Shown here piece by piece: positions 1 to 15,090 of a stretch of 15,090 bases of DNA. The notes beneath the pieces are model-generated. The model worked only from the letters and a program-made list of their open reading frames with translations. It searched no databases and was not told the DNA's origin. Origin of the DNA: a virus (lineage: Duplodnaviria > Heunggongvirae > Uroviricota > Caudoviricetes); the IMG/VR virus record IMGVR_UViG_2778261465_000004, positions 1 to 15,090 of that record; one strand, written 5' to 3'. The first letter of the stretch is position 1. Each line of letters starts with the position of its first letter. Both the position numbers and the translations under genes were made by a program.

Positions 1-711
1 TTAGGCCTGTGTCCATATTACGTGGGTAGGATCAATCCGGTATTTTGATAATTGATGGCCCTGCAGGTTTTCGGCTTCACTCCATCTCGCGCCGGTGGCC
101 AGACATATTTTTGCAACCGTCAGCAGACTAGAGTTTTGAGAATCAGCACAGGCATCCAGCAGACGTTTAATTTCTTCCGGGGTCAGGAACGCCAATTCAC
201 TCTCAGCAATTTTAAATGTTGGCAGCCCGGCAAGCGGGTTGGGGGCTGACCAGTGGCCCAGCTTTTTCAGTGTACCAAAAACAGATGATAGATTGCGCTG
301 TTCAAGGTTTACCGTGCGGGGCTTAACGGGCGACATAAGCGTGCCATCTTCATTTCGTACTTCACCTTTTAACCGTGCTTCGCGGTATTTCGTAAAGTCA
401 CCGGCTGTCAGTTCTGAAGCGATGGGATCGCCTAGACCATTACAGATAATACTAAGTTTCGCCATGAGGCGCTTGGGGTCTGTGAGTGTTTGACCATACA
501 GGGAATACCACAGCTCAATTAATTCTGATAAATGTCGCCGATCTTCCTTTTCCCCCAGCCATGGTTTTTTGTTCACTTCTTCCATTGTGAAGCTTTCAAA
601 TGCAATAGCTTCGCCTTTGGTAGCAAATTGCTTACGCACGCGCTTACCATTGCGTCCATTGGGATAGCACTCACACAACCATTTTCCGTTCGGCTGTTTT
701 CTGATGGTCAT
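1..711 (-). CDS. int: Tyrosine integrase, P2/186 Int family; partial, C-terminal part runs off the left edge of the window
   Basis: ORF start ATG at 709-711. N-terminus GRNGKRVRKQFATKGEAIAFE and the LATGARWSEA arginine box resemble P2 Int as recalled. Start lies 3 nt from the cI stop (715-717), typical of a cI-int operon. Confidence 0.9.
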   Translation of the reverse strand: MTIRKQPNGKWLCECYPNGRNGKRVRKQFATKGEAIAFESFTMEEVNKKPWLGEKEDRRHLSELIELWYSLYGQTLTDPKRLMAKLSIICNGLGDPIASELTAGDFTKYREARLKGEVRNEDGTLMSPVKPRTVNLEQRNLSSVFGTLKKLGHWSAPNPLAGLPTFKIAESELAFLTPEEIKRLLDACADSQNSSLLTVAKICLATGARWSEAENLQGHQLSKYRIDPTHVIWTQA

Positions 712-714
712 AAG

Positions 715-1365
715 TTAGAGGTTCTTGATTACTTTGACTGCACGTCCTACGACTTCCACATCATCTACAGAACATTCAAATGAAGTGTCATCTTGGTTAA
801 CTACTATTTTGTTTCCAGGTATGCGCGCAATTTTGACGATGTTTTTCATACCGTCGATGTCTATGAGCCAAATTCCGTTACTAAGCTGTTTTGTTGATGT
901 ATCAACAATGTAATTGCCGTCGTTAGCTTTGACGTACAAACAATATTCGGCTTTTCCGGGTATCAAAGTCTGATCAAGGAAAACATCCCCCATCTCTTCG
1001 AGCGTTCCGTTCTCAATGGTTGCCTGCCTTACTGATGGGATAACTATCTTTGAAAGGGGGCGAACTATAGGTGAACTCTCGTTTTTGAACTTATTTTTTT
1101 CTTCTGTTTGAGGATACATTTCCCCTTGGCCCGTTGTCAGCCAAAGAAGAGAAATACCTGTTTCAAGGGCACATTGAATAACCCAGTCAGCAGGGAAGCT
1201 ATCACGTAACATCCTGTTTGCCATGGTGCTTTTTGATGCTTCGAGGTGTTCAACCAACGCTATCTGAGTGTTGAAACCATAGGCTGTCATCAGCCTTTTG
1301 ATGGTCTCTCTCCCTCCCGTATTTGCACCTGTACTAATCTTCAAGATGAACTCTCCATTTGACAA
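715..1365 (-). CDS. cI: CI-like lysogeny repressor (phage 186 CI type)
   Basis: 216-aa ORF. CALETGISLLWLTTGQGE and C-terminal WLIDIDG...IPGNK...FECSVDDVEVVGRAV blocks parallel 186 CI as recalled. The codon at 1363-1365 is TTG, so the true start may be TTG or an internal ATG (MTAYGF). Confidence 0.85.
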   Translation of the reverse strand: MSNGEFILKISTGANTGGRETIKRLMTAYGFNTQIALVEHLEASKSTMANRMLRDSFPADWVIQCALETGISLLWLTTGQGEMYPQTEEKNKFKNESSPIVRPLSKIVIPSVRQATIENGTLEEMGDVFLDQTLIPGKAEYCLYVKANDGNYIVDTSTKQLSNGIWLIDIDGMKNIVKIARIPGNKIVVNQDDTSFECSVDDVEVVGRAVKVIKNL

Positions 1366-1467
1366 TCCAATAACGAGATCGTATTTTTGTGTTTAACTTC
1401 TAATATGAGAGTTTAGAAGTTGGGGTTAAACATCATAAAACGAGCTTAAACCAAGAGATACTGCACT
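1366..1467. promoter_or_regulatory. Lysis-lysogeny switch region between cI and apl; contains a perfect 9-bp inverted repeat AACTTCTAA-N9-TTAGAAGTT (1395-1421), a candidate CI operator
   Basis: Inverted repeat read directly from the sequence; flanked by GTTTAAC (1391-1397) and GTTAAAC (1425-1431) motifs. In 186 the pR/pL promoters and CI operators occupy this position. Promoter hexamers not confidently assigned. Confidence 0.5.
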
Positions 1468-1710
1468 ATGAGCACAGATATTTCAATTCGTGTACCAAAA
1501 GAGATGGCTACGCCTGCTGAATTCGCTGAATGGGAAGGGATTTCCCGCGGGTCTGTTTACCAAAAAATTCACCATGGTCAACTCGCTAAGTACATGGTCA
1601 AGAAAGAAAAAAACAAAGGCCGCGTAAGCCTGCGTTATCTGATGTACAAAACTGATCAGGTCCGTGAATCCCTCGGTCATTCCAACTTCCGCGTCATTGT
1701 TGGTAAGTAA
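1468..1710 (+). CDS. apl: Apl/Cox-like excisionase / early repressor (small HTH protein)
   Basis: 80-aa ORF, first gene of the rightward early operon, directly opposite cI. Position and size match 186 apl / P2 cox. Sequence-level homology not verified. Confidence 0.6.
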   Translation: MSTDISIRVPKEMATPAEFAEWEGISRGSVYQKIHHGQLAKYMVKKEKNKGRVSLRYLMYKTDQVRESLGHSNFRVIVGK

Positions 1711-1742
1711 TTTCAATTATGGGAACTTTCTAAGGGAGCACC

Positions 1743-2252
1743 ATGTTTGATTACAAGATTTCCAAACATCCGCATTTTGATGAAGCCTGTAGAGCTTTTG
1801 CACTACGTCACAATATGGCGAAGCTAGCAGAACTCGCGGGAATGAACGTCCAGACGCTGCGTAACAAGCTGAACCCGGAACAACCGCATCAGCTCACTGC
1901 ACGAGATATCTGGCTACTTACCGATCTGACTGAAGATTCAACGCTGGTAGATGGTTTTCTGGCACAGATTCATTGTCTGCCATGTGTTCCGATTAATGAG
2001 GTGGCAAAAGAGAAACTACCGCATTACGTCATGAGTGCAACTGCAGAGATAGGGCGTGTCGCGGCTGGTGCGGTTTCTGGCGATGTAAAAACCAGTGCAG
2101 GCCGTCGTGATGCGATCAGCAGCATTAACTCTGTTACACGACTGATGGCGCTGGCTGCTGTTTCATTGCAGGCCCGTTTACAGGCTAATCCTGCGATGGC
2201 AAGTGCAGTTGATACCGTAACTGGTCTCGGTGCTTCATTCGGGTTGCTGTGA
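1743..2252 (+). CDS. cII: CII-like transcriptional activator (186 CII type)
   Basis: 169-aa ORF (same length as 186 CII) with AAGGGAG ribosome-binding site 4 nt upstream. Strings such as AGMNVQTLRNKLNPEQPHQ and LTEDSTLVDGFLAQIHCLPCVP match 186 CII as I recall it. Confidence 0.85.
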   Translation: MFDYKISKHPHFDEACRAFALRHNMAKLAELAGMNVQTLRNKLNPEQPHQLTARDIWLLTDLTEDSTLVDGFLAQIHCLPCVPINEVAKEKLPHYVMSATAEIGRVAAGAVSGDVKTSAGRRDAISSINSVTRLMALAAVSLQARLQANPAMASAVDTVTGLGASFGLL

Positions 2253-2259
2253 GGTGCTT

Positions 2260-2556
2260 ATGCTGACGAAAGAACCATCATTTGCATCGCTGCTGGTAAA
2301 GCAAAGCCCGGCAATGCACTACGGTCACGGCTGGATCATGGGTGAGGATGGAAAACGCTGGCATCCATGTCATTCACAAGACGAATTGCTGTCTGAATTG
2401 ACCACGAGGAAACAGAGAAAGTCAAAATGTATGCAGCGGAAGGTGAAGTGGTTTATCAGTTTCGTTACAGAGGGGAGAGTTATTCAGTACCTGAAGATGA
2501 TTTGCTCTGTTGTTATCCGTCGTTGTCGGGCGATGGCAGTTACTTTTTCACGCTAA
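2260..2556 (+). CDS. Hypothetical early protein (position of 186 fil); overlaps the next ORF in another frame
   Basis: ATG at 2260 just after the cII stop. The N-terminal ~56 aa look protein-like; the C-terminal part (Cys/Arg-rich) overlaps the 2427 ORF and may be read-through. Confidence 0.4.
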   Translation: MLTKEPSFASLLVKQSPAMHYGHGWIMGEDGKRWHPCHSQDELLSELTTRKQRKSKCMQRKVKWFISFVTEGRVIQYLKMICSVVIRRCRAMAVTFSR

Positions 2557-2651
2557 AGGATGGGACGTTTTTACGGGGAGAGCAGGTTAAAGAGACGATA
2601 CGAAAAAATGTATCTCCTCTTGAACGTTACCGTAATAACAAACAACGATAG
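2427..2651 (+). CDS. Hypothetical small early protein (position of 186 dhr)
   Basis: 74-aa ORF preceded by AGGAAACAGAGAAAG. Composition looks protein-like (MYAAEGEVVYQFRYRGESYSVPEDD...). Confidence 0.45.
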   Translation: MYAAEGEVVYQFRYRGESYSVPEDDLLCCYPSLSGDGSYFFTLKDGTFLRGEQVKETIRKNVSPLERYRNNKQR

Positions 2652-2673
2652 TTGCGTTTTGGGGATATGAATT

Positions 2674-3015
2674 ATGGCAATTAATTGCACTGCGGCGACT
2701 GTTCCATTAAGCCCCGGTGAACGCCTGAATGGACTTAATCACATTGCGGAGTTAAGGGCGAAAGTTTTTGGCCTGAATATTGAGTCAGAGCTTGAGCGGT
2801 TTATTAAAGATATGCGTGATTCACGGGATATTAATAGCGAACAAAATAAACGGGCACTGGCTGCCATATTCTTTATGGCAAAAATTCCAGCTGAACGTCA
2901 TAGCATCAGCATTAATGAGCTGACCACTGACGAAAAGCGGGAGTTGATTAAAGCAATGAATCATTTTCGTGCAGTGGTGAGCTTATTTCCCAGACGGCTA
3001 ACCATGCCGAATTAA
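2674..3015 (+). CDS. Hypothetical early protein
   Basis: 113-aa ORF with GGGGA ribosome-binding site 8 nt upstream; co-oriented in the early operon. Confidence 0.65.
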   Translation: MAINCTAATVPLSPGERLNGLNHIAELRAKVFGLNIESELERFIKDMRDSRDINSEQNKRALAAIFFMAKIPAERHSISINELTTDEKRELIKAMNHFRAVVSLFPRRLTMPN

Positions 3016-3082
3016 CCAACTAATGAAATTAATGGCGTAAACCCGCCAGGCATCCCTTTATCTAAATTCAGGAGAATTGATT

Positions 3083-3316
3083 ATGCGTAATATTGAAACC
3101 CTCACGACCAAAACCGGACCGGATGACGCAGGGCTTAATATTTTACTGACAGAGGCTCGTCTGGAAGAACGTCGAGCAAGGGCTGAAGCAATGGCAGCTC
3201 GCCTTGATAGTCTGGCGTGTCATATTACATCCCGCCAGCTAAACCACGTCGAAGCGGCAGAACTGCTGCGTGTGACTGCTGAAGCAATCCAGAACGAAGC
3301 GCAGGAGATCCACTAA
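3083..3316 (+). CDS. Hypothetical small helical protein
   Basis: AGGAGA ribosome-binding site at 3070-3075, ATG at 3083 (the track start at 3077 is TTG). Its stop overlaps the next start (TAATG at 3314-3318). Confidence 0.6.
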   Translation: MRNIETLTTKTGPDDAGLNILLTEARLEERRARAEAMAARLDSLACHITSRQLNHVEAAELLRVTAEAIQNEAQEIH

Positions 3317-3543
3317 TGGCTGATGCAATGGATCTCGTACAGCAGCGCGTTGAAGAAGAACGCCAGCGCCACATCCGTGCTGCCCGTGCCAAAACACCGG
3401 GCGTGTCTCGCGTGCTTTGCATTGAGTGTGAAGCGCCAATTCCGCCAGCACGCCGCCGCGCCATTCCGGGAGTGCAGCTTTGCATTACCTGTCAGGAAAT
3501 CGCAGAGCTGAAAGGTAAACATTACAACGGAGGTGCTGTATGA
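3316..3543 (+). CDS. TraR/DksA-family C4 zinc-finger protein (P2 Orf82-like)
   Basis: 75 aa with CIECEAP...CITCQE (Cys-x2-Cys ... Cys-x2-Cys) and basic RRRAIPG between them. Translationally coupled on both sides. Confidence 0.8.
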   Translation: MADAMDLVQQRVEEERQRHIRAARAKTPGVSRVLCIECEAPIPPARRRAIPGVQLCITCQEIAELKGKHYNGGAV

Positions 3544-4397
3544 GCACCATCCTGAAATGGGCGGGTAATAAAACCGCCATTATGTCCGAACTGAAAAAAC
3601 ACCTTCCTGCTGGCCCGCGACTGGTTGAACCTTTCGCGGGTTCTTGTGCTGTGATGATGGAGACGGATTACCCCAGCTATTTGGTTGCGGATATTAATCC
3701 TGATTTAATCAACCTCTATAAAAAGGTTGCCGCTGATTGTGAATCGTTTATATCTCGCGCCAGAGTTTTATTTGAGATCGCAAACAGGGAGGTGGCTTAT
3801 TACAACATAAGGCAGGAGTTTAATTACTCCACTGAAATTACTGATTTCATGAAAGCGGTATATTTCCTGTATCTCAATCGTCACGGTTACCGTGGTTTAT
3901 GTCGCTATAACAAGAGCGGGCATTTCAACATTCCCTACGGTAATTATAAAAATCCGTATTTCCCTGAAAAAGAAATTCGTGCATTTGCAGAAAAAGCCCA
4001 GCGGGCAACATTTATCTGCGCCAGCTTCGATGAAACGCTGGCAATGTTGCACGCGGGAGATGTGGTGTATTGCGATCCGCCGTATGACGGTACGTTTTCC
4101 GGCTATCACACTGATGGTTTCACTGAAGATGACCAGTATCACCTGGCATCCGTTCTTGAACATCGGTCATCAGAAGGACATCCAGTCATTGTTTCTAACA
4201 GTGACACATCCCTGATCCGTTCGCTGTATCGCAATTTTACTCACCACTATATCAAGGTAAAACGCAGCATCGGTGTGGCAGCTGGCGAGGGTAAATCAGC
4301 AACAGAAATCATTGCTGTTTCCGGGCCGTGCTGCTGGATGGGATTTGATTATTCGCGTGGCGTGGATAGTTCTGCCGTGTACGGAGTACGTGCATGA
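3540..4397 (+). CDS. dam: DNA adenine methyltransferase (Dam family, N6-adenine MTase)
   Basis: N-terminal KWAGNK and PFAGSCAV (AdoMet binding) plus catalytic DPPY motif (VYCDPPYDG). ATGA overlap with the upstream stop and with the A start. Confidence 0.9.
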
Positions 4398-6808
4398 CTC
4401 ATGCCGATATGAACAACTGCTGCGGCTTTAACGAGGCTGCCGCAGCATTCTCATGGAACAGCCCGAAAAAGGCCATTAACCCTTATCTGGACCCGGCGGA
4501 AGTTGCGCCGGTTTCTACGCTTTCAAACCTGATCACTCTGTACGCTGCCGATAACGAGCAGGAACAGTTGCGCCGCGAGGCACTGAGTGATCAGGTCTGG
4601 GAGCGTTATTTCTTTAATGAATCACGTGATCCTGTCCAGCGCGAAATGGAGCAGGATAAGCTCATTAGCCGGGCAAAGCTGGCGCATGAGCAGCAGCGTT
4701 TTAATTCAGACATGGTCATTCTGGCGGACGTCAACGCCCAGCCTTCCCATATCAGCAAGCCGCTGATGCAACGTATTGAATACTTCAGCAGCCTGGGCAG
4801 GCCAAAGGCTTATTCCCGCTATTTACGTGAGACGATTAAGCCATGTCTGGAACGACTGGAGCATGTACGCGACAGTCAGCTATCTGCATCTTTTCGCTTT
4901 ATGGCAAGCCATGAAGGGCTGGACGGCCTGCTGATCCTGCCTGAAATGAGTCAGGATCAGGTGAAACGCCTGTCCACCCTGGTAGCTGCGCATATGAGTA
5001 TGTGCCTTGATGCAGCTTGTGGTGATTTGTATGCCACCGATGACGTTAAGCCAGAAGAAATCCGCAAGACATGGGAAAAGGTGGCAGCGGAAACCCTGCG
5101 TCTGGATGTCATCCCACCTGCGTTTGAGCAACTCCGTCGGAAAAGAAACCGCCGTAAACCCGTGCCCTATGAACTCATTCCGGGTTCGCTGGCGCGTATG
5201 TTGTGCGCCGACTGGTGGTATCGGAAATTATGGAAGATGCGTTGCGAATGGCGGGAAGAGCAGTTGCGCGCTGTTTGCCTGGTCAGCAAAAAAGCATCTC
5301 CTTATGTCAGCTATGAAGCCGTGATGCATAAACGTGAGCAGCGCCGTAAGTCGCTGGAGTTTTTCCGTTCTCATGAACTGGTGAACGAAGACGGCGACAC
5401 GCTGGACATGGAGGATGTGGTAAACGCCAGCAGCAGCAACCCTGCGCATCGCCGCAATGAGATGATGGCCTGTGTTAAAGGTCTGGAGCTTATCGCGGAA
5501 ATGCGCGGTGACTGCGCCGTTTTCTACACTATCACCTGTCCGTCGCGTTTCCATTCCACGCTAAATAACGGCAGACCAAACCCGACCTGGACAAACGCGA
5601 CGGTAAGACAAAGCAGCGATTATCTGGTCGGCATGTTTGCTGCATTTCGTAAGGCGATGCACAAAGCCGGGTTGCGCTGGTATGGCGTGCGGGTGGCTGA
5701 GCCGCATCATGATGGCACAGTTCACTGGCACCTGTTGTGTTTCATGCGCAAAAAAGACCGCCGTGCCATCACTGCATTACTGCGTAAGTTTGCCATCCGT
5801 GAAGACCGCGAGGAGCTGGGCAATAACACTGGGCCGCGCTTTAAGTCTGAGTTGATTAACCCGCGCAAAGGAACGCCGACAAGCTACATCGCGAAATATA
5901 TCAGTAAGAACATTGACGGTCGTGGTCTGGCTGGCGAGATCAGCAAGGAAACGGGTAAATCTCTGCGTGATAACGCTGAATACGTGAATGCCTGGGCGTC
6001 TTTGCATCGTGTTCAGCAATTCCGCTTCTTTGGCATTCCGGGGCGTCAGGCTTACCGTGAACTGCGATTGTTGGCTGGTCAGGCGGCAAGGCAACAGGGG
6101 GACAAAAATGCAGGTGCGCCGGTACTGGATAACCCGCGTCTTGATGCCATTCTGGCTGCTGCTGATGCTGGTTGTTTTGCCACCTACATCATGAAGCAGG
6201 GCGGCGTACTGGTTCCCCGTAAATATCACCTCATCAGAACCGCTTATGAAATCAACGAAGAGCCGACCGCCTATGGCGATCACGGCATTCGTATTTATGG
6301 CATCTGGTCACCCATTGCAGAGGGCAAGATCTGCACTCATGCAGTGAAGTGGAAAATGGTTCGTAAAGCCGTTGACGTTCAGGAGGCGGCAGCCGACCAG
6401 GGCGCTTGCGCCCCTTGGACTCGTGGCAATAACTGTCCCCTTGCTGAAAATTTGAACCAACAAGGGAAAGACAAATCAGCTGATGGGGATACCAGGACGG
6501 ACATTACCCGCATGGATGACAAGGAGTTGCACGATTACCTGCACAGTATGAGCAAAAAAGAGCGCCGGGAACTGGCTGCAAGGTTACGCCTGGTGAAACC
6601 GAAACGGCGTAAAGACTACAAACAGCGAATTACAGACCATCAGCGACAGCAGCTCGTCTATGAACTGAAGTCCAGAGGATTTGATGGCAGCGAGAAAGAG
6701 GTCGATTTACTCCTTCGCGGCGGCAGTATTCCGTCAGGAGCAGGCCTGCGTATCTTCTATCGGAACCAGCGTTTGCAGGAAGATGATAAGTGGCGGAACC
6801 TGTATTAA
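4394..6808 (+). CDS. A: Rolling-circle replication initiator, P2 gpA family (HUH endonuclease)
   Basis: 804 aa. HUH-type motif VHWHLL (codons at 5723-5731) and paired tyrosines YIAKYISK (5885-5899), as in P2 A / phiX174 A-type initiators. Position after the early operon matches. Confidence 0.9.
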
Positions 6809-6900
6809 TTACGCGGGTTAACAATTCGTGCTCTTAATAATACCAGGCATTTCAGGCTGATGAACGTAAAAAAACGTTTTACATCAGTAAGATTATTATA

Positions 6901-6920
6901 TACTGTAAATATAAACAGTG
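6901..6920. promoter_or_regulatory. LexA box (SOS operator) TACTGTAAATATAAACAGTG upstream of the 6961 operon
   Basis: Perfect CTGT-N8-ACAG core (6903-6918) with an AT-rich spacer. A partial second site lies immediately downstream (ACAG at 6930-6933; left half GTGG). Candidate -35 TTTACA at 6878-6883. Confidence 0.7.
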
Positions 6921-6960
6921 GTTATATATACAGTATTACTTTGGTGTCATAGGAGGAAAG

Positions 6961-7149
6961 ATGCAGGACTATTTTTTGGAGTCTTTGAAGCTCCAGCGCA
7001 TTGATTTTTTTCTTAAGCTTGTAGCGGCTAGTGAGTGTAGTGATGAAGAGAAGGGGCTGGCTCTGCAGTGGGTTTCTGAATTGACTGATGAACTCATGGC
7101 AAAAATCAGAACCCACGAATACAACCGCTCAATGGATGTCATCAGCTGA
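6961..7149 (+). CDS. SOS-regulated small protein, possibly the antirepressor (Tum-like) module
   Basis: 62-aa ORF with AGGAGG ribosome-binding site 5 nt upstream, immediately downstream of the LexA box. Function inferred from position only. Confidence 0.6.
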   Translation: MQDYFLESLKLQRIDFFLKLVAASECSDEEKGLALQWVSELTDELMAKIRTHEYNRSMDVIS

Positions 7150-7159
7150 GGTGACCTTT

Positions 7160-7393
7160 ATGCGCATTGAAATAATGATCGATAAAGAGCAGAAGATTAG
7201 CCAGTCTACCCTGGACGCCCTTGAATCCGAGCTTTACCGCAATCTGCGCCCCCTGTATCCCAAAACGGTAATTCGCATCCGCAAAGGTAGCTCTAACGGT
7301 GTGGAACTGACCGGACTGCAACTGGACGAAGAAAGAAAACAAGTGATGAAGATTATGCAGAAGGTGTGGGAAGACGACAGCTGGCTGCATTAA
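7160..7393 (+). CDS. DinI-like protein
   Basis: 78 aa starting MRIEIMIDK and ending QKVWEDDSWLH, colinear with E. coli DinI (MRIEVTIAK...ETWESADDWF) as recalled. GAGGTGA ribosome-binding site 6 nt upstream. The longer track ORF from 7088 is rejected. Confidence 0.8.
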   Translation: MRIEIMIDKEQKISQSTLDALESELYRNLRPLYPKTVIRIRKGSSNGVELTGLQLDEERKQVMKIMQKVWEDDSWLH

Positions 7394-7552
7394 GAAAAGT
7401 TGCTGGCGTCTGAACTTGGTTCTGGCGTCAGCAAGGTTGAACAACGAGTACAGTGAGGCGTTAGGTGTGGCGTTTATTTGATGAGTGAACGCCCGTTCTG
7501 CGACAGGTTCGGAGATTAAGGTTGAAACTACGGGCAAAATACCATCTTTTTC

Positions 7553-7978
7553 CTACTTAATTGAGTCCAGTAACAAGTTACAGTTACTCTCATTGTAGAG
7601 AGAACGAGCAATTAGTGTTACCTGCTTTCCATTCATTCCCGGCTTATCCCATAACACAGCTTCTTGCGACGCCACAAATTCAGCATAATCAATTATGCGT
7701 TGTTCGTGATCTGGTTCCTCATAGCCAAAGTATGAGAGCGCATCGTTGTAAGCGTGGTAAGCTGCTTTCTGTAATATCTTGATATCGGCTGTAGGTACTT
7801 GCTCCGTGTAGCTAGGATCTAATTGTGTGCTACTGCCATAGAATGCACATGAAAGGTAAGATATTGATTTCTGTTGAGCTTTAGTTCCTTTCTCATAGTT
7901 TTTAGCTGTTACCGCCTGAACTGGGACGCTAACAAAGCTTGCAACCAGAATTAAAATTAATACGTAAAAGCTTTTCAT
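7553..7978 (-). CDS. Secreted/periplasmic protein of unknown function (cargo gene)
   Basis: 141 aa with classical signal peptide MKSFYVLILILVASFVSVPVQA (likely cleaved after VQA; no lipobox Cys). GAGGT ribosome-binding site 5 nt upstream. AT-rich relative to the phage backbone. Confidence 0.75.
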   Translation of the reverse strand: MKSFYVLILILVASFVSVPVQAVTAKNYEKGTKAQQKSISYLSCAFYGSSTQLDPSYTEQVPTADIKILQKAAYHAYNDALSYFGYEEPDHEQRIIDYAEFVASQEAVLWDKPGMNGKQVTLIARSLYNESNCNLLLDSIK

Positions 7979-8196
7979 TTTGACCTCAGCCGAAACGTTA
8001 GAGAGACTATCGAAATTTGTAAAACCCGTGGCGATTCAGTTTGAGATCCTCCCCCTTACATGATTTTTAATCAAATATATACTTTTGTAAGCATACCTGT
8101 TAACCGAATTATTTATTTTTAGAGATCTTCCGACATACTGATTATGCCCGCTGAGGAGTTCACCTTGCGTAAGGTCCGATTCGCTTTACTCGTCTG

Positions 8197-8297
8197 TGCA
8201 TGTCTATGCTGCATGAGATTGCATGATCGTTTGAGGATCGTTTTTGCTAAGGCCCGCCAGAACTGGCGGGCTTTTGCGTAGATCATGCACCTGCATG
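8197..8297. repeat. Cluster of five TGCATG/CATGCA motifs flanking a hairpin, just upstream of the cos-like motif
   Basis: TGCATG at 8197, 8210, 8220 and 8292; inverted copy CATGCA at 8284. Spacing of 10-13 bp between the first three. Confidence 0.4.
8252..8278 (+). terminator. Intrinsic terminator-like hairpin GCCCGCCAG-AA-CTGGCGGGC followed by TTTTGCG
   Basis: Perfect GC-rich stem followed by a T-run on the plus strand; sits in a GC-rich islet inside AT-rich cargo. Confidence 0.6.
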
Positions 8298-8320
8298 AAA
8301 ACCATTACATAAAGCGGGCA

Positions 8321-8339
8321 GGCGTGGCGGGGATACGAG
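8321..8339. other. Putative cos (cohesive end) remnant or variant
   Basis: GGCGTGGCGGGGATACGAG: the first 13 nt match the 19-nt cohesive end I recall for phage 186 (GGCGTGGCGGGGAAAGCAT; P2 GGCGAGGCGGGGAAAGCAC), the last 6 diverge. Location between the A/tum region and the portal fragment is where cos sits in P2/186 prophages. Confidence 0.35.
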
Positions 8340-8406
8340 CGCGCGCTTATTACTTTGATAGTACTCGGGTTATAATATGGATGACTATCTATCTCGGAGA
8401 ATGTAC

Positions 8407-10059
8407 ATGTCATTAGACTATATTAAAGAACAGTTGTCAGACTTTATTTCATCTGCAGAACCTGAGGTAATGGCTATTCAGGGTGAGTGGGGGATTGGGA
8501 AAACCTATACTTGGAATGCTTTCTTAAAGGAAAATAAAAATAAGATTGCATTTAATAGATATAGTTACGTCTCTCTTTTTGGTGTTAATTCATTGGACGC
8601 ATTAAAATACTCCATCTTTGAAAATACAATTACGAAAGATTTCATTGGAAACAAACCTAATTTAAAAACAGCAACACAAAATGCAAAGGGGCTTCTTGAA
8701 TCCTGCACTAGAAAGACCGCTCGTGTGTTAAAAGATACACCTTTTTTGAAAAATTTCACTACGACACTTGAGTCAATGTCATTTATGTCAATTACTAATG
8801 TTATTGTAGTCATAGATGACTTAGAAAGACGTGGTAAAAATTTAGAAGTGAAAGATGTCTTAGGGTTGGTTTCTTTATTGAAAGAACAAAAAAATTGTAA
8901 GGTGGTTCTTTTACTTAATAACGGGACAAGTGGTATGGATGACTACTCCACTTATAAAGAAAAGGTTATTGATAGAGAGATTACCTATAATCCTACTCCA
9001 GAAGAATGTGCAGTTATAGCATATAAAAATAATTCTGATGTTCATAAATTATTAAGCAAATACTCCATTTCCCTGGGTATTAAGAATATTAGGATACTGA
9101 AAAAAATAGAGCGGTTTTTGCTAGCCTTGTTACCTGGCATTAACGTTAATTTTGAAAAAATTGCAAATGAAGTCGCACACTCCTTAACTTTGTATTGTTG
9201 GAGTCATTACGCATTTACTCCAGATGGAGATGTACCATCATTGGAGTATATTAGAAATATGAGAAATATCTATATGCGTGATGAAAAAGAGGATGGAAAA
9301 GAAAAAAAATGGCTTAATACTTTGCTTATATATGATTATAAAAAAACAAACGAACTTGATGAAGTCCTTATAGACATGGTAAGGCATGGATATATTGATA
9401 TGAACAATTTCCAAAGGCAAGTAAGTCTAAGGAATGATGAACTTATCCGTGATAGTAAGCGAGGTTCACTGTTTGAAGCATGGAAGCTTTTCTATAATTC
9501 ATTTGAAGATAACCGAAATCAGGTTATTGATAATCTATATCAAGCGGTGGTTGGTGGGATAGAGTATGTAACTCCAAGTGACTTGGATAGTGTTGTCGGA
9601 CTGTATAGAGATTTAGGTGAAAATATTAAAGCAAGTGAATTAATAAGTAAATTTATTAATTACGGCAATGATGCTCTTAAGGAATATGTTCAATCTATTT
9701 ACATGAATGTTCATCCTATAAAAGATGCTGAGTTAAAGTCAAAAATCCAAGATTATTCTACTACTTTAAATCTGGATGGTTCTATAAAGGATGTTCTAAT
9801 AAAATTATCAAGTCAGAATGGTTGGTCTGATAGGCACGAGGAAATATTGGATGCTGCCTCAGAGGATGACTACTATGATTTATTTAAAAAAGTCATTCTT
9901 GATGGTGGTGATTCAATAATAGCTACTGCTCTTAAGTTTGGTGGGTATAGCAATGGTTCAGAAAGAATGAAACGCATCGGAGAAAAAGCGAGAAATGCTT
10001 TGATAAGAATTGGAAATGAGTCGAGCATTAATAAAATACGTGTTAGACGGTATTTGTAA
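8407..10059 (+). CDS. KAP-family P-loop NTPase, soluble (no predicted transmembrane insert); cargo gene, candidate anti-phage defence protein
   Basis: Walker A GEWGIGKT (GxWGxGKT KAP signature), Walker B VIVVIDDLERR (hhhhDDLxR), then VVLLLNN. Start chosen at the ATG 6 nt after GGAGA (8407); in-frame ATGs at 8377 and 8401 are alternatives. No long hydrophobic segment seen. Strongly AT-rich. Confidence 0.8.
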   Translation: MSLDYIKEQLSDFISSAEPEVMAIQGEWGIGKTYTWNAFLKENKNKIAFNRYSYVSLFGVNSLDALKYSIFENTITKDFIGNKPNLKTATQNAKGLLESCTRKTARVLKDTPFLKNFTTTLESMSFMSITNVIVVIDDLERRGKNLEVKDVLGLVSLLKEQKNCKVVLLLNNGTSGMDDYSTYKEKVIDREITYNPTPEECAVIAYKNNSDVHKLLSKYSISLGIKNIRILKKIERFLLALLPGINVNFEKIANEVAHSLTLYCWSHYAFTPDGDVPSLEYIRNMRNIYMRDEKEDGKEKKWLNTLLIYDYKKTNELDEVLIDMVRHGYIDMNNFQRQVSLRNDELIRDSKRGSLFEAWKLFYNSFEDNRNQVIDNLYQAVVGGIEYVTPSDLDSVVGLYRDLGENIKASELISKFINYGNDALKEYVQSIYMNVHPIKDAELKSKIQDYSTTLNLDGSIKDVLIKLSSQNGWSDRHEEILDAASEDDYYDLFKKVILDGGDSIIATALKFGGYSNGSERMKRIGEKARNALIRIGNESSINKIRVRRYL

Positions 10060-10062
10060 TTT

Positions 10063-10083
10063 GGGGGGATTTTCATCCCCCAC
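10063..10083. terminator. Stem-loop GGGGGAT-TTTC-ATCCCCC between convergent KAP gene and portal fragment
   Basis: 7-bp perfect stem read directly; no strong U-tract on either strand, so its terminator function is uncertain. Confidence 0.4.
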
Positions 10084-10092
10084 ACATTTTAT

Positions 10093-10491
10093 CTAATTCA
10101 ATGAATAATCTTTGAAGGCTATTATTTTTTTCTTTAGCCAAATATTAATTTCTACAAGTCTTTTTTGTAAAGGAGTTAACTCATTTCGCACAAAAACGCA
10201 ACTGGCTTTTTCTATATCCCCAAACCCCCCAACATTGTTTGGCATTATCCCCATCATCTGCGGCGGCACACGATGCGCCGCCATCATGTCATCCCGACTT
10301 ACGTTCTTGATGTTAAGAAATTCATCCTTCGCCGCGACTTCTGACAATGGGATGATCTGAAGCCCGTCTTTTTTGCCGTTAGGCGAGTACATAAACAGGT
10401 TGCGGAAGTTGCCTGGACCTTTGGCACTTTTCATCGCGTTGCGGAGGTTGTTCACATCCTCCTGATTCTGCGCGGCGTCGGTCATGTACAT
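10093..10491 (-). pseudogene. Q: 3' fragment of portal gene (P2 Q-like); N-terminal two-thirds deleted
   Basis: Leftward-reading ORF whose stop faces the cos-like site, as Q does in P2. Assigned as portal from orientation and position; no start context and no upstream late genes. Last ~30 codons are AT-rich, suggesting the cargo junction lies inside the 3' end. Confidence 0.5.
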
Positions 10492-10503
10492 GATGAAGCC
10501 TGC

Positions 10504-11532
10504 ATGGCGGTACTGCGCGGTGGACTGGCCGCCGCAGGCACGGTGCTGCGAGTACTGGCATCTGGTCCACTGGCGATGCTGCGCGTTGCCCTGTATGCCA
10601 TATCTGGTCTGTTAGGTGCTCTGCTCAGTCCGATAGGTCTTGTGGTTACTGCACTGGCGGGCGTGGCGCTGGTTGTCTGGAAATACTGGCAACCCATCAC
10701 CGCATTTCTCGGTGGCGTGGTGGAAGGATTCAAAGCGGCGGCAGGTCCCATCAGTGCAGCGTTCGAACCGCTTAAGCCCGTGTTCCAGTGGATTGGCGAC
10801 AAAGTGCAGGCGCTGTGGGGCTGGTTTACTGATCTGCTGACGCCCGTTAAGTCGACCTCTGCCGAACTGCAGAGCGCAGCGGCAATGGGGCGGCGATTCG
10901 GGGAGGCACTGGCGGAAGGGCTGAATATGGTCATGCATCCGCTGGACTCCCTGAAATCCGGCGTTTCCTGGTTGCTGGAGAAGCTCGGCATTGTCAGTAA
11001 AGAGGCCGCAAAGGCAAAACTGCCGGAAAGCGTGACGCGTCAGCAACCTGCGACGGTGAATGCAGACGGTAAAGTGATGATGCCATCGGGTGGTTTTCCA
11101 TCATGGGGATATGGCTTTGCGGGGATGTATGACAGCGGCGGGTATATCCCGCGCGGGCAGTTTGGCATCGTCGGTGAAAACGGGCCGGAAATTGTTAACG
11201 GCCCGGCAAATGTGACCAGCCGGAGAAATACAGCTGCACTGGCTGCCGTTGTTGCCGGAATGATGGGCGTTGCTGCCGCGCCAGCAGAGCTTCCACCGTT
11301 GCACCCTTTGGCACTTCCCGCGAAAGGTGGAGAAGCAATTGTGAGTCGCGCAGCCACTGTGCCGCTCGTTCAACGGATTGAGGCACCGACGCAGATCATC
11401 ATTCAGACGCAGCCAGGACAAAGTGCGCAGGATATTGCGCGGGAGGTGGCACGCCAGCTTGATGAACGTGAACGCAGGCTGAAGGCAAAAGCCAGGAGTA
11501 ACTACAGCGATCAGGGGGGATACGACGCATGA
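10504..11532 (+). pseudogene. T: 3' fragment of tail tape-measure gene (P2 T-like); N-terminal part deleted
   Basis: 342-aa frame ending 4 nt into gpU. Ala/Gly/Leu-rich hydrophobic segments typical of tape-measure C-termini. Frame is open upstream to 10345 with no ribosome-binding site; P2 T is far longer. Confidence 0.65.
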
Positions 11533-12014
11533 TGATGGTGCTGGGATTGTACGTGTTTATGCTGCGCACCGTTCCGTATCAGGAACTGCAGTATCAACGC
11601 AGCTGGCGACATGCGGCAAACAGTCGGGTAAACCGACGTCCGTCCACGCAGTTTCTGGGACCGGAAAACGACATGCTGACGCTTTCCGGTGTTCTTATGC
11701 CGGAAATAACAGGCGGCAGGCTGTCGTTGCTGGCACTGGAGCAGATGGCAGAACAGGGGAAAGCATGGCCCCTGATTGAAGGCAGCGGCACGATTTACGG
11801 CATGTATGTGATTGAGGGACTGAATCAGACTAAAACGGAGTTTTTCCGCGACGGTATGCCGCGCCGGATTGAGTTCACCCTGTCGCTCAAACGAGTGGAT
11901 GAATCCCTGTCCGATATGTTCGGTGATCTCAGTGCGCAACTGAATAATCTGCAGGACACGGCAACGTCTGCCTTAAGCGATATCAGTAAAACGGTGGGAG
12001 GGCTGCTGTCGTGA
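11529..12014 (+). CDS. U: Tail protein gpU
   Basis: 161 aa; MMMVLGLYVFMLRT..., LSGVLMPEITGG, AWPLIEGSGTIYGMYVIEG and FTLSLKRVDESL match P2 gpU as recalled. ATGA overlap with the T stop. Confidence 0.85.
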   Translation: MMMVLGLYVFMLRTVPYQELQYQRSWRHAANSRVNRRPSTQFLGPENDMLTLSGVLMPEITGGRLSLLALEQMAEQGKAWPLIEGSGTIYGMYVIEGLNQTKTEFFRDGMPRRIEFTLSLKRVDESLSDMFGDLSAQLNNLQDTATSALSDISKTVGGLLS

Positions 12015-13111
12015 ATTTCAGCTCTGAACTGCTTAACAAAGGCAACAAAACTCCCGCATTCAGCATCAGTATTGAGGGCAGGGATATCACCACTGTGCTG
12101 GATAACCGCCTGATGAGTTTGACGCTGACGGATAACCGGGGCTTTGAAGCGGACCAGCTTGATCTGGAGCTGGATGACGCTGACGGAAAAATCGTGCTGC
12201 CGCGCCGTGGTGCGGTTATTACGCTGGCGCTGGGCTGGAAGGGGCAGCCGCTTTTCCCGAAAGGGGCATTCACAGTGGACGAGATTGAACACACTGGCGC
12301 ACCGGACCGCCTGACTATCCGGGCGCGAAGTGCTGATTTTCGGGAAACGCTGAATACCCGCCGTGAAAAATCGTGGCATAAGACCACCGTCGGGGAAGTG
12401 GTGAAGGAAATAGCCGCGCGGCACAAGCTGAAGATGGCACTGGGTAAAGACCTGTCGGATAAGCCCGTGGAGCATATAGACCAGACTAATGAGAGTGACG
12501 GCAGTTTTCTGATGCGGCTGGCGCGACAGTACGGTGCCATCGCGTCGGTGAAAAATGGCAATCTGTTATTCATCCGGCAGGGGCAGGGCAAAAGCGCCAC
12601 TGGTAAACCTCTGCCAGTGATCACTATCACACGCAAGGACGGCGACAGTCACCGATTTACCCTGGCAGATCGCGGAGCCTACACGGGCGTAATTGCCAGC
12701 TGGTTGCATACCCGCGAACCTGCGAAGAAAGAAAGCACCACGGTGAAGCGTAAGCGCAGAACTAAGAAGCAGAAGAAAGAGCCAGAAGCGAAGCAGGGCG
12801 ATTACCTGGTGGGTACGGATGAAAACGTGCTGGTACTTAATCGCACTTATGCCAACCGGAGCAATGCCGAACGAGCGGCGAAAATGCAGTGGGAACGCCT
12901 GCAACGCGGCGTTGCGTCATTTTCGCTACAACTGGCAGAAGGGCGGGCAGATCTCTACACGGAAATGCCTGTGAAGGTCAGTGGTTTTAAACAGCCGATA
13001 GATGATGCGGAATGGACCATTACGACTCTGACACATACCGTCAGCCCGAATAACGGTTTTACAACCAGTATTGAACTCGAAGTGAAGATTGATGATCTTG
13101 AAATGGAATAA
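12011..13111 (+). CDS. D: Tail protein / late control protein gpD
   Basis: 366 aa, GTG start overlapping the U stop (GTGA), in the P2 gpD position between U and ogr. Confidence 0.85.
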   Translation: MNFSSELLNKGNKTPAFSISIEGRDITTVLDNRLMSLTLTDNRGFEADQLDLELDDADGKIVLPRRGAVITLALGWKGQPLFPKGAFTVDEIEHTGAPDRLTIRARSADFRETLNTRREKSWHKTTVGEVVKEIAARHKLKMALGKDLSDKPVEHIDQTNESDGSFLMRLARQYGAIASVKNGNLLFIRQGQGKSATGKPLPVITITRKDGDSHRFTLADRGAYTGVIASWLHTREPAKKESTTVKRKRRTKKQKKEPEAKQGDYLVGTDENVLVLNRTYANRSNAERAAKMQWERLQRGVASFSLQLAEGRADLYTEMPVKVSGFKQPIDDAEWTITTLTHTVSPNNGFTTSIELEVKIDDLEME

Positions 13112-13179
13112 AGTGTTCTCAATATTGATATTTTGTGTATCATTACAATGATTCTGATAGCAAAGGTAGGGATCTGGAT

Positions 13180-13398
13180 ATGATGAATTGTCCAAAGTGT
13201 GGTCATGCGGCACACACAAGGAGCAGTTTTCAAGTAACTGAAAGCACCAAAGAGCGTTACTGCCAGTGCCAAAATATTAACTGCGGGAGCACTTTTGTTA
13301 CTCATGAAACAGTGGTCCGGTTTATTGTGACACCCGCACTGATTGCTACTGCTCCTCCACATCCATTGCCAGGTGGTCAGGGGCATATGAATTTTTGA
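13180..13398 (+). CDS. ogr: Ogr/Delta-type zinc-finger late-gene transcriptional activator
   Basis: 72 aa from ATG 13180: MMNCPKCGHAAHTRSS...TKERYCQCQNINCGSTF...PHPLPGGQ parallels P2 Ogr (MFHCPLCQHAAHARTS...KERYHQCQNVNCSATF...PHPLPSGQ) as recalled. Confidence 0.85.
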   Translation: MMNCPKCGHAAHTRSSFQVTESTKERYCQCQNINCGSTFVTHETVVRFIVTPALIATAPPHPLPGGQGHMNF

Positions 13399-13403
13399 GA
13401 AAG

Positions 13404-13430
13404 AGAACCTGCTACGGCAGGTTTTTATTC
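13404..13430. terminator. Intrinsic terminator AACCTGC-TACG-GCAGGTT + TTTTTATT shared by convergent ogr (+) and the BRCT gene (-)
   Basis: Stem 13406-13412 / 13417-13423 followed by a T-run on the plus strand; the minus-strand gene's stop (13425-13427) lies inside the T-tract. Confidence 0.65.
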
Positions 13431-13907
13431 ATCTGGGATCTCACCCGTTTCAAGAAAATGTATAAAGCCAGGCTCATCTATGATGATTGTGCCTTTCATC
13501 CTGGCTGCCGATACTTTTGATGGGCCTGCATTGTAACCGCAACAGAGCATCTGAAGGCTTTGGGTTATAGAGGTTCTTACCGTTAATCCTTGTTCATTCG
13601 CCTTATCAACCAATCTTTCTTTATCTGCTTTCTTAAATCCGGTGAAACACACATCGAATGTATTTTTTTTCGGACCAGACTGCTTAGTGAGATGTGAGTA
13701 GCTTTCGGGGAGGAATGACGCGCATTCCTGAATGGCTTGTTCTGGTGAATCGTACTGTTTAAGAATGCGGTCTTTTCGGAAGGTTTTTATTCGATCGGTG
13801 TTCTTACAAATGCCCTGTATATGATTTTCGCTATAACTGATGCTCTGTATAGAGTGAACAGCGATACGACCATTTGCATTGATGTAAACAAAGTGAAGTT
13901 CTTCCAT
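13425..13907 (-). CDS. Small BRCT-domain protein with WYL-like N-terminal domain (cargo gene next to attR)
   Basis: C-terminal ~80 aa (FTGFKKADKERLVDKANEQGLTVRTS...GYNAGPSKVSAARMKGTIIIDEPGFIHFL) align by eye to the BRCT domain of NAD-dependent DNA ligase (LTGSLS...RDDAKARL...GAKVAGSVSKKTD...[24 protein letters not shown]). N-terminal ...HIQGICKNTDRIKTFRKDRIL resembles the C-terminal strand region of WYL domains (tentative). AGAGG ribosome-binding site 7 nt upstream. Confidence 0.75.
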   Translation of the reverse strand: MEELHFVYINANGRIAVHSIQSISYSENHIQGICKNTDRIKTFRKDRILKQYDSPEQAIQECASFLPESYSHLTKQSGPKKNTFDVCFTGFKKADKERLVDKANEQGLTVRTSITQSLQMLCCGYNAGPSKVSAARMKGTIIIDEPGFIHFLETGEIPDE

Positions 13908-13933
13908 GTGAAACCTCTTTGCATGATTTCAAG

Positions 13934-13972
13934 ATGGCGACAGGCAAGATGGACGCAAAAGTCTGTCGCCAT
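13934..13972. repeat. 10-bp perfect inverted repeat ATGGCGACAG-N19-CTGTCGCCAT with embedded AAGATGG direct repeat
   Basis: Arms at 13934-13943 and 13963-13972; AAGATGG at 13931-13937 and 13947-13953. Lies between the BRCT gene start and the ssrA 3' end. Confidence 0.5.
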
Positions 13973-13994
13973 TTTGCCGCCACTACCAAAGAAA

Positions 13995-14025
13995 AAGGGG
14001 CTACGCTTTCACGTAACCCCTTGAT
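13995..14025 (-). terminator. ssrA intrinsic terminator
   Basis: On the minus strand just after the tmRNA CCA end: AAGGGGTTACG-TGAAAG-CGTAGCCCCTT followed by TTTTCTTT. Confidence 0.6.
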
Positions 14026-14030
14026 TTATT

Positions 14031-14393
14031 TGGTGGAGCTGGCGGGAGTTGAACCCGCGTCCGAAATTCCTACATCCTCGGTACTACATGCTTAGTCAGT
14101 CTTTACATTCGCTTGCCAGCTGCGGACGGACACGCCACTAACAAACTAGCCTGATTAAGTTTTAACGCTTCAACCCCAGGCAGGGCTTCCACGCGATCTC
14201 TTTTGGGTTTGACCTCTCTTGATCCCCGTCCTAAGAGCGGAGGCTAGGGAGAGAGGGCTCTAAGCAGGTTATTAAGCTGCTAAAGCGTAGTTTTCGTCGT
14301 TTGCGACTATTTTTTGCGGCTTTTTACGAGGCCAACCGCCCCTCGGCATGCACCTTGGGTTTCGCAAATCCCGTCGAATCCAGAATCAGCCCC
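14031..14393 (-). ncRNA. ssrA: tmRNA (transfer-messenger RNA, SsrA), 363 nt
   Basis: Reverse complement reads GGGGCTGATTCTGGATTCGACGGGATTTGCGAAACCCAAGGTGCATGCCGAGGGGCGG...CGGGTTCAACTCCCGCCAGCTCCACCA, matching enterobacterial tmRNA across the tRNA-like ends. Confidence 0.95.
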
Positions 14394-14607
14394 AATGTGT
14401 AACGATAAGTATACCAGATTTATGAGCGCCATGACCAGCCTCAATGGCGTTATCGTTAAAGATTTAGCACCCATGTAGCCTGATTTTTATTCGATTAAGC
14501 AATGGGATGGCAACATTTTCGTCGGATGTGATAGCCAATAAGATGTTCATTCGCGCCGCCGGAGAGGGAGGCGCGGTGAGGAACTGGTCAATAATTGGAG
14601 TGCAGGT

Positions 14608-15090
14608 TTAACGGTGGGCGTTTTTCATGATACGCGCTTTATCCACCTGCCATTCGCGCTCTTTGATATCTGAACGTTTATCGTGCTGTTTCTTACCTTT
14701 GGCGACGCCGATTTTCACTTTGCACCAGGCATTTTTCCAGTACAGGGAGAGCGCCACTACGGTATAGCCTTCTCGATTGACGCGACCGTACAATGAGTCC
14801 AGTTCGCGCTGGTTGAGAAGTAACTTGCGGGTACGGGTAGGATCGCACACCACATGCGTGGAGGCCACTGCCATTGGCGTGATGTTTGCGCCAAACAGGA
14901 ACGCTTCTCCGTCACGCAGAAGGACATAGCTGTCGCTGATATTGGCTTTTCCTGCGCGCAGGGATTTAACTTCCCAGCCTTGCAGGGCAAGTCCCGCTTC
15001 GAACTCTTCTTCGATAAAGTATTCGTGACGGGCGCGCTTGTTAAGCGCGATGGTCGCTGAACCAGGTTTATGTGCTTTTTTCTTCGTCAT
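14608..15090 (-). CDS. smpB: SsrA-binding protein SmpB
   Basis: Complete 160-aa ORF ([53 protein letters not shown]...) matching E. coli SmpB as recalled; immediately upstream of ssrA on the same strand. Confidence 0.95.

Follow-up and report, generated by a model that had tools for sequence, protein, structure and literature searches.

A soluble, stand-alone KAP-family NTPase gene in the P2 hotspot of a prophage remnant: a candidate phage defence gene from a large family

The window analysed here is a stretch of DNA of 15,090 nucleotides (positions 1 to 15,090 of IMG/VR virus record IMGVR_UViG_2778261465_000004). It is a P2-like prophage. Between gpA and gpQ, in the P2 hotspot, it carries a gene for a KAP-family P-loop NTPase. 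A first-pass annotation made from the sequence alone proposed that this gene encodes a novel anti-phage defence protein. Its genomic context supports anti-phage defence as the best hypothesis, and we argue below for that function and against the novelty. The longest open reading frame (ORF) for the KAP protein runs from 8377 to 10059 on the + strand and encodes 560 amino acids (aa) with no internal stop codon. The gene and its signals are:

8371..8376, + strand: perfect -10 hexamer TATAAT, promoter-like with a poor -35, read directly from the sequence
8394..8397, + strand: GGAG Shine-Dalgarno, 9 nt upstream of ATG 8407, read from the sequence
8407..10059, + strand: KAP-family NTPase coding sequence, 550 aa, WP_001726290.1 (the longest ORF starts at 8377 and gives 560 aa)
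10062..10082, + strand: stem-loop after the KAP stop codon, 7 bp with 5 G-C pairs, -13 kcal/mol

The first-pass annotation began the gene at 8377 and gave the protein 550 to 560 aa. The ORF is indeed intact over 560 aa, but the true start is probably ATG 8407, which gives 550 aa. We place it there because of the GGAG upstream, because TATAAT lies over the first ATG (8377), because RefSeq annotates the start at 8407, and because homologues align only from residue 11 in the 560-aa numbering. Residue numbers below refer to the 550-aa protein unless the 560-aa numbering is stated. The TATAAT hexamer is absent from the output of a consensus promoter scan, and a promoter role for it is suggested by the letters alone. 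The KAP ORF is AT-rich, as had been seen at first pass: it has 32.7% GC against about 50-54% in the flanks (53.0% for gpA and 54.4% for the right flank). The hairpin reported right after the stop codon is also there. It is only modestly more stable than shuffled sequence (z only -1.7). However, six homologous KAP cassettes each have a differing stem-loop directly past the stop codon, so its position is conserved while its sequence is not. This makes it likely that the stem-loop is a real terminator, common to the KAP gene and the convergent Q gene. The KAP ORF of this remnant prophage is 100% identical to copies in intact prophages.

The protein matches Pfam KAP_NTPase (PF07693) with 34.9 bits, above the cut-off of 20 (E 1.3e-8), over residues 18-210 (560-aa numbering) only. 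The KAP family of P-loop NTPases is said to go back to Aravind et al. in 2004. A search of NCBIfam gave no matching model, and thus no housekeeping family. With 65 homologues as input, AlphaFold2 gave a model of mean pLDDT 84.2, consisting of a core, a lid and an all-alpha arm that covers residues 271-547 in the model. The parts of the protein are:

8407..8997, + strand: AAA+-type P-loop NTPase core, residues 1-197, predicted with five strands, Walker A, Walker B and the sensor-1 Asn
8482..8505, + strand: Walker A motif GEWGIGKT, residues 36-43 in the 560-aa numbering
8662..8787, + strand: polar helical hairpin between Walker A and Walker B, residues 86-127
8803..8829, + strand: Walker B motif with the KAP signature IVVIDDLER (IVVIDDLERR is at 143-152 in the 560-aa numbering)
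8998..9216, + strand: helical lid domain, residues 198-270
9217..10056, + strand: all-alpha C-terminal arm, residues 271-550, a generic helical-repeat fold and putative sensor

Across the 65 homologues the invariant residues concentrate in the ATPase, in the segments GEWGxGKT, RYSYVSLFG, IDDLER, LLLN and EKVID. The G, W, G, G, K and T of Walker A never vary, and neither do the DDLER of Walker B or the sensor-1 Asn. The model has an AAA+-type ATPase nearest to Cdc6/Orc1 and TnsC, with MuB also among the closest folds. Foldseek against the PDB gave only weak AAA+ matches (E ~1e-4, TM-score 0.2-0.3), and the family profile found nothing meaningful among PDB sequences (best E 0.15).

No transmembrane (TM) segment is present: the top Kyte-Doolittle window of 19 residues reaches 1.28 against a threshold of 1.6. 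An intact ORF, the motifs GEWGIGKT and IVVIDDLERR, the Pfam match and the lack of a TM segment bear out the description of an intact soluble KAP P-loop protein. The first-pass annotation took the missing TM insert as a departure from typical KAP proteins. TM helices in or near the NTPase domain are typical of this family, but they are not universal. PifA also has none, so their absence does not exclude the protein from the KAP family and is not unusual. The position where membrane KAP and YobI proteins carry TM helices is occupied here by the hairpin of residues 86-127. It is not hydrophobic, its pLDDT falls below 50 at residues 94-119, and its R102 is invariant among the 65 homologues. A hidden TM or amphipathic membrane anchor was considered and set aside. 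There is no hydrophobic window and the hydrophobic moment of the insert is only moderate, which is evidence neither way.

The C-terminal region was described as having no recognisable motif, and it does match no known domain. It was also called the effector part, and this is not supported. Profile searches and searches with AlphaFold2 and Foldseek found no effector fold there, and the last ~280 residues look like generic helical repeats that make a sensor-like arm in the model. Nowhere in the protein did profile and structure searches find an enzymatic effector fold (nuclease, protease, TIR or pore). The model has no beta-strands beyond residue 194, so there is no evident winged helix either. 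Mean pairwise identity is 71% in the ATPase core and 50% in the C-terminal arm. The ratio of nonsynonymous to synonymous substitution rates (dN/dS) between two E. coli alleles that are 80% identical is 0.13 for the whole protein; taken by part, it is 0.10 for the ATPase, 0.16 for the arm and 0.32 for the insert. By these sequence measures purifying selection acts on the entire protein, and the arm and insert evolve faster.

It is worth considering exactly where in the hotspot the gene sits. Three features define its slot and the slot next to it:

7553-7978, - strand: 141-aa gene, WP_000834899, phrog_7437, in the gpA-to-cos slot
8322..8340, no strand assigned: cos-like cohesive-end site GGCGTGGCGGGGATACGAG, the left border of the cargo slot
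8348..10162, + strand: swappable cargo cassette, delimited by blastn breakpoints against L021; it comprises the KAP gene with that gene's terminator and a divergent 3' end of Q

The cos-like site GGCGTGGCGGGGATACGAG compares with P2 cosL, GGCGAGGCGGGGAAAGCAC followed by TGCGCGC. A conserved stretch of the cos region is also found upstream of the KAP gene in Salmonella, Citrobacter, Pantoea and another Enterobacteriaceae genome. With the cos-like site at 8322-8340, the KAP gene fills the short cos-to-Q interval of the gpA-gpQ hotspot. The site divides this hotspot into two slots, gpA-to-cos and cos-to-Q, that exchange independently. L021 is a near-identical remnant from another strain with a DUF4062 gene in its cos-to-Q slot, and blastn homology between the two breaks at 8347 and 10163. 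The cassette between these points has 33.0% GC against about 49-54% in the flanks. The gpA side varies too. An identical KAP gene in locus L001 has a different gpA-side neighbour and lacks the 141-aa gene, while locus L003 has the KAP gene with the 141-aa gene, as in the window. In locus L002 a KAP allele of 80% identity adjoins an HSDR_N/S1 protein instead. The 141-aa gene in turn recurs with unrelated cargo (HIRAN, DUF262/DUF1524 or DUF4062) where the KAP gene is absent. Since the cos-Q cargo, the gpA-side neighbour and the 141-aa gene each exchange independently, the KAP gene is by its arrangement a self-contained, stand-alone cassette. This agrees with the first-pass description of a gene encoded alone in the P2 hotspot. 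Neither Pfam nor PADLOC gave a match for the 141-aa gene, which could itself be a small gene with an accessory or defence-related function of its own.

The rest of the prophage is ordered integrase, CI, gpA, DinI-like gene, 141-aa gene, KAP gene, Q fragment, 3' part of T, gpU, gpD and ogr-like gene. Beyond the ogr-like gene lie ssrA and then smpB. The features outside the cargo slots that matter here are:

4394-6808: gpA replication protein
10093-10491, - strand: C-terminal fragment of the portal protein gpQ
10504-11532: ORF for the 3' part of the tape-measure gene T, joined directly to the truncated Q
13425-13907, - strand: 160-aa ORF between the ogr-like gene and ssrA, matching phrog_2561 (labelled 'DNA ligase')
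14031-14393: ssrA (tmRNA)
14608-15090: smpB

Homology to intact relatives ends at 10508, where the portal gene Q is cut and fused to the 3' part of T. Judged by this junction the prophage is a defective deletion remnant that has lost everything from mid-Q to mid-T. The related remnant L021 has a different deletion junction: its Q is intact, its P is truncated, and its T fragment begins about 100 nt later. The 160-aa ORF may be further cargo at the attachment end of the prophage.

The KAP gene is rare in E. coli, with 128 of 5426 complete genomes carrying it, on the chromosome every time. Two alleles occur there, one 97-100% and the other ~80% identical to the window gene. The exact protein was found on 484 contigs. 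The wider family is very large. A word-indexed protein search gave 871 relatives, and the best 120 of these 871 are full length at 42-100% identity. An exhaustive HMMER search gave 3846 clusters (at 50% identity) at E<=1e-3 and 1046 at E<=1e-30. Nearly all of the best 150 HMMER matches have 550-600 aa and align end to end, which implies a fixed architecture. The protein also matches PHROG 4740, whose function is not known, over its full length. Members occur in Gamma-, Alpha- and Deltaproteobacteria, Cyanobacteria, Leptospira, Bacteroidota, Myxococcota, Nitrospinota and candidate phyla radiation (CPR) bacteria. Relatives from different phyla are 31-44% identical and their spread is patchy.

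Several kinds of mobile element carry the family. Homologues fill the cos-Q slot of P2-like prophages of Salmonella, Citrobacter, Pantoea and other Enterobacteriaceae, with identities of 44-100%. A homologue in the accessory region of a Cronobacter lambdoid prophage adjoins an AbiJ-like PDC-S32 gene, and in Burkholderia phages one lies beside a RelE toxin gene. The E. coli plasmid NZ_CP031136.1 has a full-length member that is 28% identical (L103, positions 6980-8686). This presumed phage-plasmid has 109 kb, is non-mobilizable, and carries genes for tail fibres, a DnaB-like helicase, a primase and a DNA ligase. A homologue is also found on about 74 Klebsiella plasmids, and those listed are similar in size to the 109-kb E. 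coli plasmid. Other homologues sit in small islets near integrase or AlpA genes, or adjoin the candidate system PDC-M02.

No conserved partner gene was found across lineages when 758 neighbouring ORFs from 80 loci were clustered all against all. The only neighbour clusters reflect synteny within the Desulfuromonadales. A census with PADLOC and Pfam covered 149 immediate neighbours at 49 loci, drawn from 60 loci outside the Desulfuromonadales, and no neighbour family recurred in more than 4 loci. The matches in it are integrases, P2 portal and terminase genes, scattered defence genes (DpdF, AriA, Dsr1, PsyrT and mad3) and many housekeeping genes. Across lineages there is no conserved small upstream ORF. 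The sole upstream peptide that seemed conserved was discarded, as it is the translated cos region.

The best match among defence profiles is PADLOC PDC-S49 (E 2.2e-25, 87.5 bits), aligning residues 16-445 to positions 9-443 of a profile of 624. The alignment thus takes in the NTPase and part of the helical region of the window protein. Ten of ten family members tested match it, with only partial matches of 70-100 bits. This suggests that the family of ~555 aa is probably a sister clade of PDC-S49 and not a core member. The protein has the profile, Walker motifs and helical tail of the KAP family, without the TM helices. It does not have the marks of a STAND protein, since there is no NB-ARC or NACHT match above threshold and no distinct effector domain. 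The NB-ARC hidden Markov model scores 14.9 bits against a threshold of 23.5, over residues 16-84 only. STAND and Avs proteins differ from the window protein, which starts directly with the ATPase, has no N-terminal effector, and has only helical repeats at its C-terminus.

Among characterised proteins PifA of the F plasmid is a founding KAP member. It excludes phage T7, acts at the membrane and has no TM helices (PMC13001434). Like the window protein it is a KAP protein encoded by a single gene on a mobile element. The two have common motifs (GxWGxGKT, hhhhDDL[DE]R and the segment Y..K(V/I)I), and IVVIDDLER aligns with IVVMDDLDR of PifA. However, PifA has 741 aa and the C-terminal regions are unrelated. 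We rejected orthology, as the two proteins are alike only in the motifs (BLASTP E 0.011; hhalign probability 23%). Defence has been validated for EF_KAP and for three KAP NTPases of metagenomic origin (the RADS study, PLoS Biol 2026, PMC13552941). Proteins of the EF_KAP type have a KAP NTPase and ~300 residues with no known domain, and both Walker B and the C-terminus are needed. The validated single-gene KAP proteins protect alone in a heterologous host, and EF_KAP reportedly does not act by abortive infection (PMC13552941), which the first-pass annotation had put forward as one possible role of the window protein. The window protein has the same plan of a single protein with a KAP NTPase and a domainless C-terminus. 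Compared by description, the differences are that TM helices are predicted in EF_KAP and that this group comes from Firmicutes, beside serine recombinases.

Reve is a single-gene ATPase with a KAP P-loop from P4-satellite hotspots. It has been validated against several phages and is described as unrecognised by PADLOC and DefenseFinder (NAR 2026, PMC13586616). Like the window gene it is a KAP system of one gene in a cos-adjacent hotspot of E. coli, but of the two sister hotspots in the P2/P4 pair Reve occupies that of P4 and the window gene that of P2. By description alone the two could be of the same or of different families. Tmn has a helical-repeat arm as its sensor, and its ATP turnover goes up on infection. 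It has two TM helices inside the P-loop domain, forms a membrane decamer, exports Mg2+, and synergises through ATP turnover with ATP-sensitive systems such as Gabija (PMC13001434). The window protein resembles it in joining a P-loop NTPase to a solenoid-like helical-repeat arm with no separate effector. It differs from Tmn and YobI in having the polar, low-confidence hairpin in place of the two TM helices, and it has no PADLOC tmn match. QatA, also a KAP NTPase, binds DNA and assembles into 7-8-mers, and its own system can partly do without it (PMC13279940).

We argue that the KAP protein probably has a role in defence. We lean, a little less firmly, to the fuller reading in which a P2-like temperate phage carries a stand-alone accessory (moron) gene whose product protects the lysogen against other phages by a switch-NTPase mechanism. 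The gene and its motifs, the predicted fold, the cassette behaviour in the hotspot, the several temperate-phage carriers and the purifying selection are the observations we start from. Defence function, trigger, oligomerisation and output are what we infer. The cassette behaviour, the several types of temperate phage, the purifying selection and the published precedents make defence the better supported reading. The P2 gpA-gpQ hotspot holds old/tin and many validated defence systems (Rousset et al. 2022). Defence genes also neighbour homologues elsewhere (PDC-M02, DpdF, AriA, Dsr1 and PsyrT). The remnant beside ssrA has decayed and yet keeps this accessory gene intact under purifying selection, which fits retention by the host of useful prophage cargo.

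The mechanism we propose is guided by what has been published on Tmn, EF_KAP, QatA and PifA. The protein would be a soluble KAP switch NTPase of the AAA+ type, with a conserved ATPase and lid fused to a more variable helical arm of ~280 residues. This arm would bind a phage protein or a cell state that the phage induces. Recognition would then license NTP-dependent oligomerisation of the ATPase, as in Cdc6/ORC, TnsC, STAND and Tmn-type proteins. There is no nuclease, protease, TIR or pore domain, so the output could be the assembly itself, which might sequester or remodel its target or assemble on nucleic acid. Heavy NTP consumption that stalls the infected cell may be an alternative or additional output. 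Any one of these specific outputs, taken singly, is doubtful. One can also imagine that the whole family is an effector-less, membrane-free immune ATPase that polymerises like Cdc6 or TnsC on a phage DNA or protein complex, or burns NTPs, and that Desulfuromusa has put it to a domesticated use. We consider this version unlikely.

It must be noted that several points weigh against a defence function. The output step is speculation, because no effector domain was found. The match to PDC-S49 is partial and leaves about the last third of the 624-position profile unaligned. PDC-S49 is itself only a single-gene PADLOC candidate, and experimental support for it was not found in the literature. No validated family in PADLOC-DB v2 (Tmn, QatA, Avs and others) matches at E<1; the only matches are PDC-S49 and a weak one to PDC-S20. 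The validated KAP and Tmn precedents are membrane proteins and the window protein is not. Rousset et al. (2022) have no KAP entry among their tested systems. Experiments on WP_001726290, WP_023147874, phrog_4740 or a close homologue were not found in Rousset 2022, in the DefensePredictor paper with its supplements, or in the full-text literature. Outside the Enterobacterales many neighbours of KAP homologues are housekeeping genes. Finally, in Desulfuromusa and related Desulfuromonadales a homologue of 33-35% identity is kept at one syntenic chromosomal site, in up to 14 species-representative loci. The order there is DUF2288, a 228-aa gene of the UDG superfamily, (LysE), KAP and DUF2959 (loci L071-L102), with the KAP gene at about 8001-9662 in most of these loci. 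This homologue looks vertically inherited, judging by its synteny, unlike a mobile defence gene.

The last two points also speak for a non-immune role, either cellular or in phage regulation. Temperate phages might carry the protein for their own benefit or that of the host, for example as a factor for NTP-dependent assembly or chaperoning, or as a switch ATPase that binds DNA. Its closest folds, Cdc6/Orc1, TnsC and MuB, are DNA-loading switch ATPases, and about a quarter of P2 hotspots hold non-defence cargo such as partition systems (Rousset et al. 2022). However, a housekeeping function does not sit well with a gene that in the Enterobacterales is an exchangeable AT-rich cassette in a defence-dominated slot. 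Nor does it explain the absence from all but 128 of the 5426 E. coli genomes, the patchy presence across phyla or the lack of an NCBIfam housekeeping match, and we regard such a role as quite unlikely. Another scenario keeps the immune function and removes the output. The protein could be a sensor-only module that stimulates host factors or other resident defence systems, in the way that Tmn acts on Gabija, or it could target plasmids and other mobile elements. The missing effector domain would then make sense, as would the synergy of Tmn with ATP-sensitive systems and the behaviour of QatA, which binds DNA, oligomerises and can partly be dispensed with. Against this, no co-occurring system is conserved in the neighbourhoods, and the validated single-gene KAP proteins protect by themselves in a heterologous host. 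We find this scenario decidedly improbable.

A missing effector could also mean that the KAP gene is half of a two-gene system, with the 141-aa gene (7553-7978, -) supplying the effector or an antitoxin. The two genes do adjoin in the window, in L003 and in one arrangement of Table S5 of Rousset et al. Yet they are divergent and have cos between them, and each occurs without the other. The identical KAP gene of L001 lacks the 141-aa gene, the 80% allele has the HSDR_N/S1 protein next to it instead, and the 141-aa gene occurs with DUF4062, HIRAN or DUF262 cargo where there is no KAP gene. Neither a neighbour nor a small upstream ORF is conserved across lineages. This makes a two-gene system very improbable indeed, and a stand-alone defence gene of a temperate phage is the reading we retain.

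The claim of novelty went too far. Table S5 of the P2-hotspot catalogue by Rousset et al. (2022) already has the exact protein, WP_001726290, under the name KAP_NTPase and arranged as it is in the window (hypothetical, KAP_NTPase, WP_000834899 and DinI). It matches PDC-S49 in part and PHROG 4740 over its full length, and single-gene KAP defences (EF_KAP, Reve) were validated in 2025-26. The locus type, the domain family and the concept have all been published, so this is no new category. If the gene is a defence gene, a very large cross-phylum family joins an emerging immune class of single-protein KAP NTPases. Counting more than 1000 clusters at 50% identity, this family is found in at least three kinds of temperate phage and on a plasmid with phage genes. 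The validated examples of the class are membrane proteins whose mechanisms are mostly not known. The window protein would then be a convenient soluble model for immune KAP proteins without a recognisable effector.

Two other genes of the hotspot deserve mention. In L002, positions 6081-8732 encode a protein of 883 aa. It begins with a nuclease-like HSDR_N region, contains a P-loop and ends in an S1 RNA-binding domain. Its gene lies directly upstream of the 80% KAP allele in about 108 E. coli genomes. It has only a weak match to PADLOC mad3 and is possibly another hotspot system. In L001, positions 9173-9784 encode a 203-aa protein with no Pfam or PADLOC match that RefSeq calls 'valyl-tRNA synthetase', an annotation that looks wrong.

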